From the IMG/VR virus record IMGVR_UViG_3300043567_001187, positions 1 through 64,000 of that record: DNA of 64,000 bases; one strand, given 5' to 3'. This DNA comes from a virus. Every line of letters starts with the position of its first letter. Position 1 is the first letter of the stretch. The notes under the pieces are model-generated. The model did not search any database. It saw only the letters and a list, made by a program, of their open reading frames with translations, and was not told the origin of the DNA. Of the stretch, positions 16,113-26,168 are shown piece after piece. Position numbers and translations under genes: made by a program.

Positions 16113-18839
16113 ATGAGCTGCACACCAACACCAACTATATCTAATACTCAAACATCTACTCCAACCAAGACTCCCACATCTAGCGTTACGGCATCTAAAA
16201 CAGGAACTCCATTAGAAAGTGCAACTCGTACACCTAGTATCACACAAAGTAAAACTAAAACTTTAAGCAAAAGTAATACTAAAACTAGAACCGCCACTGT
16301 CAGCAGAAGTCCCGACATATCGCCAACGCCATCGTTTTCAATTTCAAGAAGTTCTACTCTTACAAGAACTATTTCAAAAAGCCTAGGAACTACCAAAACC
16401 CCGTCCCCATGCTCAAGTCCTACTCCTTCAATATCTTTTAGTAAAACTAATACCGCTACGCCTACTCGTACAACCACAAATACTGCTAGTAAAACCCCAA
16501 CACTATCAGCAACTAAGACACGTACTAATACAGCAACTAATACAAAAACTAATACAAGTACATCTAGTTTAACTAAAACAAAAACCAATACTAGTACAAT
16601 TACATCAACTAATACAGCGACTAGCTCATCTACTCCTACTATAACAGCAACTAATAGCCCTACAAATACTATGACTGCAAGTATAACTCCTACTTATACG
16701 CCTACTAATACCACTACTAATACAGTTAGTATTTCTATGACGAATACCTCTACTAGTACTGTCACACGTAGTATTAGTAATACGACTACTCAAACACCAA
16801 CTAGTACTAATACATCAACGGTTAGTCAATCAGTTAGTGGTACTCCTAATGCTTCTCATACATCAACACCAACCAATACGGCTACAACTACAAGAACAAC
16901 GACTAATACTGCGACACCAACAAAAACATTGACAAATACTGCAACCTCTACTACTACAGCAAGTAGCAGCTTAACTGCAACTATCACAGCTAGTATAACT
17001 CCAACAAATACCGCCACCAATACTCTGACACCAACTAATACGTCTACCAACACCCTAACCGCCACTAATACTATAACACCATCTCCAACCTATTCCCCAA
17101 CTAATACCATAACATCTACACCAACATCAACTATTACAGCAACTCAAACCAAAACAACTACTAATACTCCAACTTTTACCAGAACATCAAGCATAAGTAT
17201 GACACCCACAGATACACCCACAACAACACCAACCACAACACGTACCAATACCACAACAAACACTATAACTGGTACTCAAACTAAAACACCCACCACAACC
17301 AGAACACCAACTAAAACCAGCACAATGACACCATCTGCTACTATAGTATGTGAAATAGAGACAATAACAGATCCTGTTGATACAACTATTACTATAGATA
17401 GACATACAAGAATAGTTGCTGATAATGGACCAATTAATATAGACTTAATAAATTATACATCTTCTATATGTCCATTAAATCCATATCCGTTACCACATGT
17501 TACATTAATTCTTGATGGATCTAGTTCAGAATATAATACAGTATACCAAGTTTTGCCTGGAAATCAGCCAGTAAATATAAGAATAGCTAAACAAGGATCT
17601 GGCACATGGGTATTTACTGATTCTAATAGTAATTGGACACATAGAGCTAGTGGTACTCCACATTTACTATTCGAAGAAGGAACTATTATTTTAGCCGGAA
17701 ATGCTCTGGGCGGTTCGGCTACCGGTAGTATAATAGGCAGACAAAATGCTACTATGCCATATCTTGGTAGTGCTGATTTTAATGGACCAGTGGCTCTTTT
17801 AATAGCTCGACAAGCAAGAGAACTTACCGAGGATGGAGATTTAATACCAGAAGAAAACAGAGAACCATCAACTTTTTCTAGAGTCTTAGAGATTCCATCA
17901 GGAGCAATAAATTCTGATATTATTCTAGGAGGTAGTTCCTATGGTAATCAAAACGGAGAATTTGGTACTTTTGATAGTAATGCAGCATTTAGAATTGGAT
18001 CTAGTGGCATAACACTAGCATCAGATGCTAATGGATATGTAAGATTTATAACAGCATATTGGCAAAAAGTAGATGGCAACCCAGATCCTGAAATAGATGT
18101 CAATATTGGTACACAAACAATGACAGGAGATGTCTGGCTAGATTATGCATTATTCCCATCATCTATTAATAATTTAAATATAAGAACTGGTGGTCTGGTT
18201 TTTGCTAATGGAAACTATAGATTTGGCGGCAACCCATTAAGCAATCCTCCAATATTAACCATAGGTAGTGAATATTCTTCAGCAAGAATAGAGATGGTAT
18301 CAAATATTCAAGCTTTTAATAGTACAACATTTATAGGAAACGATAATCTTATCACAGGAGGAACATTTAGATTATTTAATAACGGAACAGACCCGACCGT
18401 AACTGTACAGGCTGGTAGTCACACAATTTCATCAGACTTAATATTTGATACAACACCAACATTTGATGTATCGGATGGCTGTCAGATAACTATTGGTGGA
18501 ACTATACAACCTACCAGTGCCGGATTAATAAAAAATGGCTTGGGAACTCTTATACTACAAGAAGCTGTCGGATATAGCGGCACTACGAATATTATAGATG
18601 GATCTTTAACAGTAAACTCTATAATAAGCGGACCATCTATAGTTGATTCGGTAGTATTTACATCTGGTACTTTAACTATAAACTTTAATAGTGAGCCATC
18701 AATCAATGATACTTTCCAGATATTGCTTGGTTCTACAGCACAAACTTATGTCACTGAAGATATCAGCCTCGTTGGGATAACAGGAACTTATATCCCAGCA
18801 TATGACGATACTACTTCTACTTTAACTATTAATGAATGA
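16113..18839 (+). CDS. Fibre/adhesin-like protein: Thr-rich mucin-like stalk plus autotransporter-associated beta-strand (PATR-like) repeats
   Basis: First ~410 aa dominated by T/S/P/N; C-terminal IAKQGSGTWVF and GLIKNGLGTLIL..GYSGTTNIIDGSLTV motifs. Confidence 0.7.
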   Translation: MSCTPTPTISNTQTSTPTKTPTSSVTASKTGTPLESATRTPSITQSKTKTLSKSNTKTRTATVSRSPDISPTPSFSISRSSTLTRTISKSLGTTKTPSPCSSPTPSISFSKTNTATPTRTTTNTASKTPTLSATKTRTNTATNTKTNTSTSSLTKTKTNTSTITSTNTATSSSTPTITATNSPTNTMTASITPTYTPTNTTTNTVSISMTNTSTSTVTRSISNTTTQTPTSTNTSTVSQSVSGTPNASHTSTPTNTATTTRTTTNTATPTKTLTNTATSTTTASSSLTATITASITPTNTATNTLTPTNTSTNTLTATNTITPSPTYSPTNTITSTPTSTITATQTKTTTNTPTFTRTSSISMTPTDTPTTTPTTTRTNTTTNTITGTQTKTPTTTRTPTKTSTMTPSATIVCEIETITDPVDTTITIDRHTRIVADNGPINIDLINYTSSICPLNPYPLPHVTLILDGSSSEYNTVYQVLPGNQPVNIRIAKQGSGTWVFTDSNSNWTHRASGTPHLLFEEGTIILAGNALGGSATGSIIGRQNATMPYLGSADFNGPVALLIARQARELTEDGDLIPEENREPSTFSRVLEIPSGAINSDIILGGSSYGNQNGEFGTFDSNAAFRIGSSGITLASDANGYVRFITAYWQKVDGNPDPEIDVNIGTQTMTGDVWLDYALFPSSINNLNIRTGGLVFANGNYRFGGNPLSNPPILTIGSEYSSARIEMVSNIQAFNSTTFIGNDNLITGGTFRLFNNGTDPTVTVQAGSHTISSDLIFDTTPTFDVSDGCQITIGGTIQPTSAGLIKNGLGTLILQEAVGYSGTTNIIDGSLTVNSIISGPSIVDSVVFTSGTLTINFNSEPSINDTFQILLGSTAQTYVTEDISLVGITGTYIPAYDDTTSTLTINE
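16122..17345 (+). repeat. Low-complexity Thr/Ser/Pro (TPT, TNT, TxT) coding repeat
   Basis: Imperfect ACN-codon-rich repeats. Confidence 0.95.
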
Positions 18840-25329: not shown

Positions 25330-26168
25330 AGTAACTCTCCTTCTTGGATACACACATTAGAGTCTGATCCTCCGTCTGGTACAGTTCCACTAGGACAGCA
25401 TAAACAGCTGTCCCCTATCCACATCCACGAACCATCATCAAGAAAAGCCCGACAAATTTGTACTCTATATGGATTCTGAGTGTGCCAAGCTGGAGGAAGA
25501 CCGTGTTCGTTTGGACTAGAACCTGCAACACAACATTTTCTATCACCAACAATTCCTTTTGGTCTTGGAGAAACAGCATTATTCCAACATCCGCATATAT
25601 TATTAAAAAATGCTAGATAAGCATCAGGATCATCAGGATCATACACGTAGTCATACACACTCGCTACTCCAGAACATTCTATACATCCAGACCGAGTAAT
25701 TTCTGTATTACACGCCGAAGCTCTAATACCTCTTTCCCATGGTTCTCCTATTTCTCCGTCTGTTCCCTCGTTAACTTTTATAAATATTGGCTGTTGTTCT
25801 TGATTATCAACTATTTGCCTTACAGGAAATCCGATATCCCATGCAAAATCCGCTCCTCTGCATAAACTAGTACCAGCACATCTTTCAAATCTAAAAGTTG
25901 ATCCACCGGGAGGACCATCATTTCCTTCGACAGGTACAATATCCCCATTTTCTGTTTCATAATATCTTATACAGTACCATTCTCCATCGTCTTTTGGTAC
26001 TGTTCCAGCCCATGGTTTTTTTCTTTCATCAAATTCCACAAAAGTTGTATAAGTGTCTGTTTGTATACAAAAACAACAAATTCCACTACTTATACAACAA
26101 CAACCTTCTCCACCAGCTATTTTTTCGCCAGTTAATATAATTTTATTCTGATAAGAATAAACAGACAT
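25326..26168 (-). CDS. Cys-rich hypothetical protein, possibly virion-associated
   Basis: GCCC, ICCFC, CGC, KCC, CLCC clusters. Confidence 0.55.
   Translation of the reverse strand: MSVYSYQNKIILTGEKIAGGEGCCCISSGICCFCIQTDTYTTFVEFDERKKPWAGTVPKDDGEWYCIRYYETENGDIVPVEGNDGPPGGSTFRFERCAGTSLCRGADFAWDIGFPVRQIVDNQEQQPIFIKVNEGTDGEIGEPWERGIRASACNTEITRSGCIECSGVASVYDYVYDPDDPDAYLAFFNNICGCWNNAVSPRPKGIVGDRKCCVAGSSPNEHGLPPAWHTQNPYRVQICRAFLDDGSWMWIGDSCLCCPSGTVPDGGSDSNVCIQEGELL

Follow-up and report, generated by a model that had tools for sequence, protein, structure and literature searches.

Family GT60 of the glycosyltransferases (GT) includes polypeptide alpha-N-acetylglucosamine (GlcNAc) transferases of protists, such as Dictyostelium Gnt1, which acts on a hydroxyproline of Skp1, and Dictyostelium Gnt2 and Trypanosoma cruzi OGNT, which act on Thr/Ser of mucin-like repeats. 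The protein family PF11397 is named after the Skp1 enzyme. In bacterial viruses, glycosylation of the particle has been shown in very few cases. Mycobacteriophage glycosyltransferases reportedly decorate structural proteins of their own phages while in the cytoplasm of the host (Freeman et al. 2023, Cell Host Microbe, as cited in PMC12619734). The cultured Xanthomonas jumbo phage XacN1 displays at least two Schiff-stained virion bands, the proteins behind which are not named, and its authors propose phage glycosyltransferases as the makers of virion glycoproteins, the annotation given being just "glycosyltransferase family protein" (PMC5852040). No description of a GT60-based phage glycosylation system was found in the literature searched. 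This paper describes a candidate for such a system, encoded by a gene cassette at positions 18840-24930 of a 64,000-nucleotide stretch (hereafter the window) of the IMG/VR virus record IMGVR_UViG_3300043567_001187. It is rather probable, in our judgment, that the cassette represents a phage cytoplasmic protein O-glycosylation pathway whose main substrate would be the Thr-x-Thr tract in the fibre-like protein encoded next to it.

The source record (labelled G000; G-, L- and P-numbers denote related genomes, loci and proteins) is 94,485 bp long and 68% complete according to CheckV, complete relatives measure 130-240 kb, and the window comprises its first 64 kb. The fibre-like protein (908 residues) is encoded by an open reading frame (ORF) on the + strand, 16113-18839, which stops where the first ORF of the cassette (18840-20453, - strand, a carbamoyltransferase) stops, so that the two converge with zero gap. 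The remaining cassette genes encode a GT60-type enzyme, a small HtrL-like protein and a fusion protein (22579-24930), all on the - strand. Both the ORFs and the zero-gap convergence given in the initial annotation, which had been made from the letters of the window alone, were reproduced to the coordinate.

Among these genes the GT60-type enzyme is the proposed initiator. Profile hidden Markov model (HMM) assignment of its 420 residues confirmed the predicted GT60-type glycosyltransferase, PF11397 matching with 230.6 bits (cut-off 21, E 4.7e-68) in two stretches, profile positions 1-44 and 93-350. The DSH motif noticed beforehand (D96-S97-H98) is invariant across 19 homologs, as are H207-G208-E209-E210 and H234. 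The AlphaFold (AF2) model of the enzyme has a predicted local distance difference test (pLDDT) value of 92, and its PDB matches at ranks 1-29 are polypeptide N-acetylgalactosaminyltransferases (ppGalNAc-transferases, GT27), with Z 19.5-22.9 over ~280 residues and a root mean square deviation of 3.3-3.9; the best-scoring other GT-A enzyme reaches Z 16.4. As modelled, the fold is closest to that of the mucin-type polypeptide GalNAc-transferases, and the kinship to mucin-initiating enzymes suggested initially holds at the level of structure. PF11397 was absent from 14 control/reference prokaryote genomes.

The candidate acceptor tract, first described as ~410 residues of T/S/P repeats, corresponds to fibre residues 1-412 and contains 39% Thr, 15% Ser and 8.5% Pro. 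Thr tends to occupy every second position (frequency at lag 2 of 0.74 against a base of 0.39, ~12 standard deviations over shuffles), and the fibre is the sole Thr/Ser/Pro-rich ORF of the 94-kb record. This region has a single open frame, the remaining five containing 8-80 stops, and 131 Thr residues are conserved with the ortholog in L067, the codon being different at 83 of the 131. Because only one frame is open and Thr is kept despite changed codons, this comparison indicates translation of the tract and selection at the protein level. Tandem repeats in the underlying DNA are weak and degenerate. The tract shows 52% identity to its ortholog, with in-frame indels, and the last 168 residues of the fibre show 91%. 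The public gene call of the source begins the fibre at Met405 (window 17325; 504 residues, P0008) and loses the whole Thr-rich tract, whereas the ortholog P0009 is called at its full length of 966 residues; since one call omits the tract and the other keeps the whole protein, automatic annotation may hide such tracts.

The C-terminal half of the fibre is rare, with 3 homologs only among 5.8 billion proteins. One protein, P0010 (605 residues, from an 8.7-kb contig), carries this domain behind a Cys-rich rather than a Thr-rich N-terminus, which suggests, at the level of sequence, that the N-terminal region of fibre-type proteins is exchanged as a module. No match to the fibre was found in Pfam or NCBIfam, its PHROG match was confined to the low-complexity part, and comparison with PDB sequences gave nothing useful. 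Its AF2 model (pLDDT 49; short regular strands at residues ~684-824) was too poor for a fold search; with neither a family match nor a usable model, the adhesin-like head first ascribed to the protein was not confirmed. The description as the last tail gene stands in a weaker form, in that the ORF follows a tape-measure-like giant ORF (phrog_25241, E 1.9e-9) and four ORFs without family match, common to the tail modules of relatives, which together with the fibre ORF occupy the + strand from 1 to 18839; judging by this position the fibre would be a tail or virion protein. Neither a signal peptide nor a transmembrane segment was detected in the fibre or in any cassette enzyme, and therefore enzymes and substrate would meet in the cytoplasm.

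Comparison with other viral loci links the GT60 gene to such tracts. Thr/Ser/Pro-rich ORFs were defined as those with at least 55% of these residues over 80 residues and were counted within 10 kb of the GT60 gene in loci dereplicated at 80% identity into 27 clusters. They comprised 26 of 551 ORFs (4.7%) and occurred in 16 of the 27 clusters, as compared with 6 of 1792 ORFs (0.33%) and 3 of 80 loci in a PhoH-anchored control from similar phages, and are thus ~14 times commoner around GT60 than around PhoH, although the preference of the tracts for tail modules partly confounds this control. Fisher tests of GT60 against PhoH surroundings gave p values of ~2e-9 and 6e-12, which overstate independence because the records are related. 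At the level of whole records, at least five matches to a seven-fold Thr-x-Thr DNA pattern were present in 12 of 13 GT60-positive and 13 of 26 GT60-negative records, and, among near-complete genomes, in 5/5 and 2/7, respectively. G000 and its relative G001 have one such ORF apiece, in each case within two genes of GT60 and at different genome positions. The replication genes of G001 are 70-86% identical to those of G000; its slot after the tail module holds neither GT60 nor tract ORF, and its GT60 gene (40% identity) lies elsewhere, adjoining the sole Thr/Ser/Pro-rich ORF of that record. The gene arrangement thus indicates that GT60 gene and single Thr-rich ORF moved together in G001.

The tract-bearing neighbours of GT60 have several domains, and their tracts, 80-250 residues long, are internal. 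One of them, a protein of 2151 residues in L053, matches the virion structural protein phrog_14478 (E 4e-211), and another has RCC1 repeats; in L005, L008, L179 and L180 the homolog of the 648-residue ORF upstream of the fibre bears a Thr/Ser/Pro extension. By these signs (the phrog_14478 neighbour, the tract extensions of tail proteins and the tail-module position of the fibre) the candidate acceptors look like virion parts. That cassette and Thr-rich proteins belong together, as the initial annotation had it, finds support in the comparative linkage and in XacN1, which has the cassette and Schiff-stained virion glycoproteins (PMC5852040). The co-occurrence of GT60 with Thr-rich genes that it anticipated was recovered in one direction: in the genomes compared, GT60 predicts tracts and tracts need no GT60.

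A scan of viral contigs retrieved 65 loci with a GT60 homolog. An HtrL-GT-A protein accompanies GT60 in 48 of them, a carbamoyltransferase occurs in 17 and a lone HtrL protein in 11. Fusion to an FkbM domain is confined to this locus and L024/L066, the domain being missing from the closest relative, L002. Across these loci the conserved core is GT60 plus HtrL-GT-A, with carbamoyltransferase, FkbM and lone HtrL as optional tailoring functions, and not the full set of four enzymes envisaged at first. Partners swapped in among the relatives (a CmcI-like sugar O-methyltransferase, a GT2 enzyme and a Fringe/GT31-like enzyme) are again of glycan-tailoring types and count in favour of the proposed pathway. 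The cassette is accessory, being found in 5 of 12 near-complete genomes and at shifting genome positions. A second arrangement (L175-L178, in G009, G012, G025 and G027) comprises, besides HtrL-GT-A and GT60, 7-8 small ORFs on the same strand, one of them Fringe/GT31-like.

We infer the fibre as acceptor, GlcNAc as the sugar, the glycan as the carrier of the methyl and carbamoyl groups, the order of the steps and the place of the fibre in the virion. Late in infection, the soluble GT60-type enzyme would transfer an N-acetylhexosamine (HexNAc), probably GlcNAc, from a uridine diphosphate (UDP) sugar to the Thr/Ser hydroxyls of the tract while the latter is unfolded. More sugars would be added by the fusion protein, through its HtrL and GT-A domains, and by the extra HtrL paralog, and the glycan would be capped through O-methylation by the FkbM domain and O-carbamoylation by the NodU-family enzyme. 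A tail appendage would thereby gain a bottle-brush spacer that is stiff and resists proteases.

The features of the region are collected in Table 1.

Table 1. Coordinates of the cassette, the fibre-like protein and their neighbours (positions in the window).
Feature	Position	Strand	Basis or remark
Tail-module context	1..16096	+	Tape-measure-like giant ORF and 4 conserved ORFs upstream of fibre
Thr/Ser/Pro-rich tract, fibre residues 1-412	16113..17348	+	Composition, lag-2 periodicity; proposed O-glycan acceptor
C-terminal globular part of fibre, residues 413-908	17349..18839	+	Predicted all-beta
NodU/CmcH-family O-carbamoyltransferase, optional tailoring	18840..20453	-	PF16861 206 bits, PF02543 84 bits
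GT60-type (PF11397) glycosyltransferase, 420 residues	20440..21702	-	Proposed initiating polypeptide HexNAc-transferase
Stand-alone HtrL/YibB-like protein, 289 residues, putative glycosyltransferase, optional	21706..22575	-	Atlas structure and BLAST
C-terminal GT-A (GT2-like) domain of fusion, residues ~527-783	22582..23352	-	Weak matches
HtrL_YibB domain of fusion, residues 236-486	23473..24225	-	PF09612, 40.4 bits (cut-off 24.1)
FkbM methyltransferase domain of fusion, residues 27-206	24313..24852	-	PF05050, 56.4 bits (cut-off 22.7)
140-residue ORF, backbone neighbour outside cassette	24931..25353	-	Homologs where cassette absent
Cys-rich 280-residue ORF, unlinked to cassette	25326..26168	-	No family match

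Assignment of the partner enzymes is of uneven strength. The O-carbamoyltransferase call proved sound, the protein having both the Carbam_trans_N (PF02543) and the Carbam_trans_C (PF16861) domains and matching phrog_1601 (E 1e-123); its membership is at family level only, since with the NodU equivalog model it reaches 171 bits, where the cut-off is 1000. The 289-residue protein was recognized as HtrL-like through its Atlas structure, with template modeling scores of 0.70-0.73 to clusters that are 100% PF09612, and through a transitive BLAST match to the HtrL domain of the fusion (E 0.003, at the GGFFGG motif); it had no HMM match in Pfam or NCBIfam. The domain order proposed for the fusion protein was upheld for the FkbM part (TIGR01444, 32.2 against a cut-off of 37.7) and the HtrL part (TIGR02192, E 2.5e-11). 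Its GT-A part is GT2-like on weak evidence, namely a match to the HpsE model far under cut-off (E 0.0011, 18 bits) and Atlas features resembling viral clusters, one of which has PF00535 on 25% of its members; this C-terminus had no Pfam match, and comparison of the fusion with PDB sequences gave nothing useful.

The initial annotation had extended the region to 26168, of which the cassette proper accounts for the part up to 24930; by gene content the 140-residue and Cys-rich ORFs lie outside. The former is excluded because it is present at sites that lack the cassette, its homologs adjoining the tail module in G001 (the slot without cassette) and in the GT60-negative G031. The latter displays CCC, CC and CxC clusters and has a homolog only in L002; kinship with the Cys-rich N-terminus of P0010 was considered and rejected, the two being unrelated. 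All genes from 18840 onward are on the - strand, and past the cassette they comprise an HNH endonuclease, a GT4-like gene, a split DNA polymerase, PhoH and ribonucleotide reductase. The HNH/homing-endonuclease-like ORF (window 27221-28015, -) keeps the same backbone position in relatives. The GT4-like gene (window 29723-31417, -; 564 residues) adjoins the split DNA polymerase and occurs in 35 of 39 related records; its best NCBIfam match is GtfA (E 3e-8), covering the generic nucleotide-binding C-terminal half only. It was considered as a general initiator for Thr-rich proteins and rejected, as it is present in 12/12 near-complete genomes irrespective of tract content, 5 of the 12 having at most two Thr-x-Thr pattern matches. 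When the 10-kb region was compared by megablast with 50,697 phage records, no match was returned.

The mucin-type interpretation is the best-supported reading of the locus, and one that we infer with somewhat more confidence than doubt; glycosylation of this fibre by the cassette of its own phage is, on the comparative data, probable. A number of points weigh against it besides the two statistical limits given above. Within dereplicated loci, adjacency of GT60 and tract ORFs (within two genes) is only ~2 times chance, with 10 cases observed and 5.2 expected. The source's own start at Met405 would leave the fibre without the tract, and an N-terminal virion-attachment domain is not recognisable in the protein. 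Searches of PDB sequences with phmmer and with a 19-sequence profile of the phage enzymes gave no match at E up to 1, and direct sequence kinship to a characterised GT60 enzyme is therefore presumptive. Two GT60-negative genomes, G031 (CheckV completeness 94%) and G032 (100%), have 7 and 5 Thr/Ser/Pro-rich ORFs, respectively, and no glycosyltransferase family was recognised among the ORFs interleaved with their Thr-rich tail genes. Thr-rich tail proteins being common without GT60 in this phage group, the tract is therefore independent of the GT60 cassette. In these two genomes (G031 32301-79017 and G032 41905-101928; L157-L171) tape-measure-like ORFs of 5733 and 5937 residues are followed by tail modules that hold most of the Thr/Ser/Pro-rich ORFs, up to 1751 residues long. 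Paired Thr/Ser/Pro-rich ORFs were also observed in the early/replication region of two records (L115 995-3462 and L129 11350-15290) in which no GT60 gene was found, the records being only 45% and 23% complete.

One alternative is a different protein target, namely that the cassette glycosylates other virion proteins with short Ser/Thr tails, after the manner of capsid and tail tube subunits of mycobacteriophages, or host proteins, and that the Thr-x-Thr tract is an unglycosylated, flexible or beta-structured spacer. Thr-rich tail proteins without GT60 and GT60 cassettes without nearby Thr-rich ORFs fit this alternative, a strict period-2 Thr pattern could form a structure of its own, and the XacN1 glycoprotein bands, assigned to no named protein, may belong to other virion proteins; with Thr-x-Thr tracts in all five near-complete GT60-positive genomes, strong local enrichment and the co-movement of GT60 and tract ORF set against it, we regard it as unlikely. 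The target could also lie outside the phage, the cassette working from inside the cell on a glycan of the host envelope, be it lipopolysaccharide, capsule or an undecaprenyl-linked precursor. Superinfection could then be blocked or the receptor changed, and the fibre adjacency would only reflect the variable island that closes the tail module. The HtrL, FkbM and NodU families, three of the four, are best known from lipopolysaccharide, polyketide and Nod-factor chemistry and are typical of lipopolysaccharide, polysaccharide or lipo-oligosaccharide tailoring, which itself counts against a protein substrate. All enzymes could act on cytoplasmic lipid-linked precursors, PHROGs classes the cassette families as morons/auxiliary genes, and in the four near-complete genomes with the second arrangement (130-240 kb) the cassette is surrounded by early genes, such as those for phosphatase, thioredoxin and clamp loader, and is not accompanied by any Thr/Ser/Pro-rich ORF within 10 kb, a further point against the fibre as substrate. 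The initiating enzyme is nevertheless structurally nearest to polypeptide transferases and not to polysaccharide GT-A enzymes, PF11397 was missing from the reference prokaryotes, the enzymes have no membrane anchors, and neither the co-movement in G001 nor the genome-level link is explained by a host target; serotype conversion would, moreover, bring no obvious benefit to a phage that is large and encodes replication functions itself. This, too, appears improbable. Hypermodification of phage DNA, in which a modified base would be glycosylated and carbamoylated, is consistent with the cassette lying on the strand of the replication block and with the fact that phage glycosyltransferases often act on DNA (cited in PMC12619734). 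No thymidylate-synthase-family hydroxymethylase (PF00303) was found in G000 or in four near-complete GT60-positive genomes, two of which have ThyX; the GT60 fold points to peptide acceptors, and the cassette is accessory and changes position, so that DNA is a very improbable target. Glycosylation of hydroxymethyl-pyrimidines was accordingly rejected, no ThyA-family gene having been found, and so was a hydroxyproline route, as PF13640 (2OG-Fe(II) oxygenase) was absent from G000 (68% complete), G001 and the complete G007.

If the mucin-type reading is extended beyond this locus, the cassette would belong to a widespread, modular and horizontally mobile system of eukaryote-like mucin-type O-glycosylation in large aquatic/jumbo phages, turning Thr-x-Thr tracts of tail appendages into bottle-brush glycoproteins, a proposal for and against which the evidence is nearly balanced and which we advance tentatively. 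Put forward with equal reserve, its parts would be GT60 for initiation, a bifunctional HtrL-GT-A protein for extension and exchangeable tailoring enzymes (methyl, carbamoyl, GT2 or GT31). Were this true, bacterial viruses would for the first time be known to make mucin-like glycoproteins, a possible evolutionary link between the GT60 and GT27 enzymes of eukaryotes and viruses would arise, and a simple cytoplasmic toolkit for such glycoproteins, compatible with bacterial hosts, would be at hand. A dense mucin-type coat on fibres would bear on adsorption, on survival of the particle in water, on stickiness to mucus or polysaccharide and on recognition by grazers or immune systems.

With the protist GT60 enzymes the phage enzyme shares PF11397, a soluble GT-A architecture, a DxH-type motif and a Thr-rich repetitive candidate acceptor, and a two-domain extending glycosyltransferase would follow the initiator as the bifunctional PgtA follows Gnt1. 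It differs in being encoded by a bacterial virus and in having an extra C-terminal beta domain of ~90 residues, and the prolyl 4-hydroxylase companion of the Skp1 pathway was not found in G000, G001 or G007. The GT27 enzymes of animals and Toxoplasma are its best structural matches, as judged from the model, and share with it DxH and GGE-like motifs; their function is to start dense O-glycosylation on Thr/Ser/Pro tracts, a role to which that of the phage enzyme may be analogous. Sequence identity to them is, however, 10-15%, and the phage enzyme would be cytoplasmic instead of Golgi-resident, without ricin-type lectin domain or membrane anchor. The serine-rich-repeat adhesins of Gram-positive bacteria (GtfA/GtfB) offer an analogy in their cytoplasmic O-GlcNAc initiation, stepwise extension and very long Ser/Thr repeat, and no closer relationship, their initiator being a GT-B enzyme (GT4) tied to accessory Sec export. 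The mycobacteriophage system resembles the one proposed here in that its glycosyltransferases are phage-encoded and work in the host cytoplasm on structural proteins of the same phage; its glycans are reported to be on the C-termini of capsid and tail tube subunits, whereas the candidate acceptor here is a 412-residue fibre tract, and the initiating enzyme here appears to be of a different family.

A cultured counterpart is XacN1, in which ORF330-ORF334 include homologs of the four enzymes (ORF334, GT60, 45% identity; ORF333, carbamoyltransferase, 46%; ORF332, HtrL, 26%; ORF330, HtrL-GT-A, 40%) that, as here, converge on the end of a baseplate/fibre module, facing baseplate wedge genes and a 3313-residue ORF. 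XacN1 differs in being a 385-kb myovirus of a GC-rich host and in having no FkbM domain, and its neighbouring giant ORF has short Pro/Thr patches only, unlike the 412-residue tract described here. XacN1 and relatives with the same cassette are in culture, as are the Stenotrophomonas phages CM1 and RAS14, so that the idea can be tested now.

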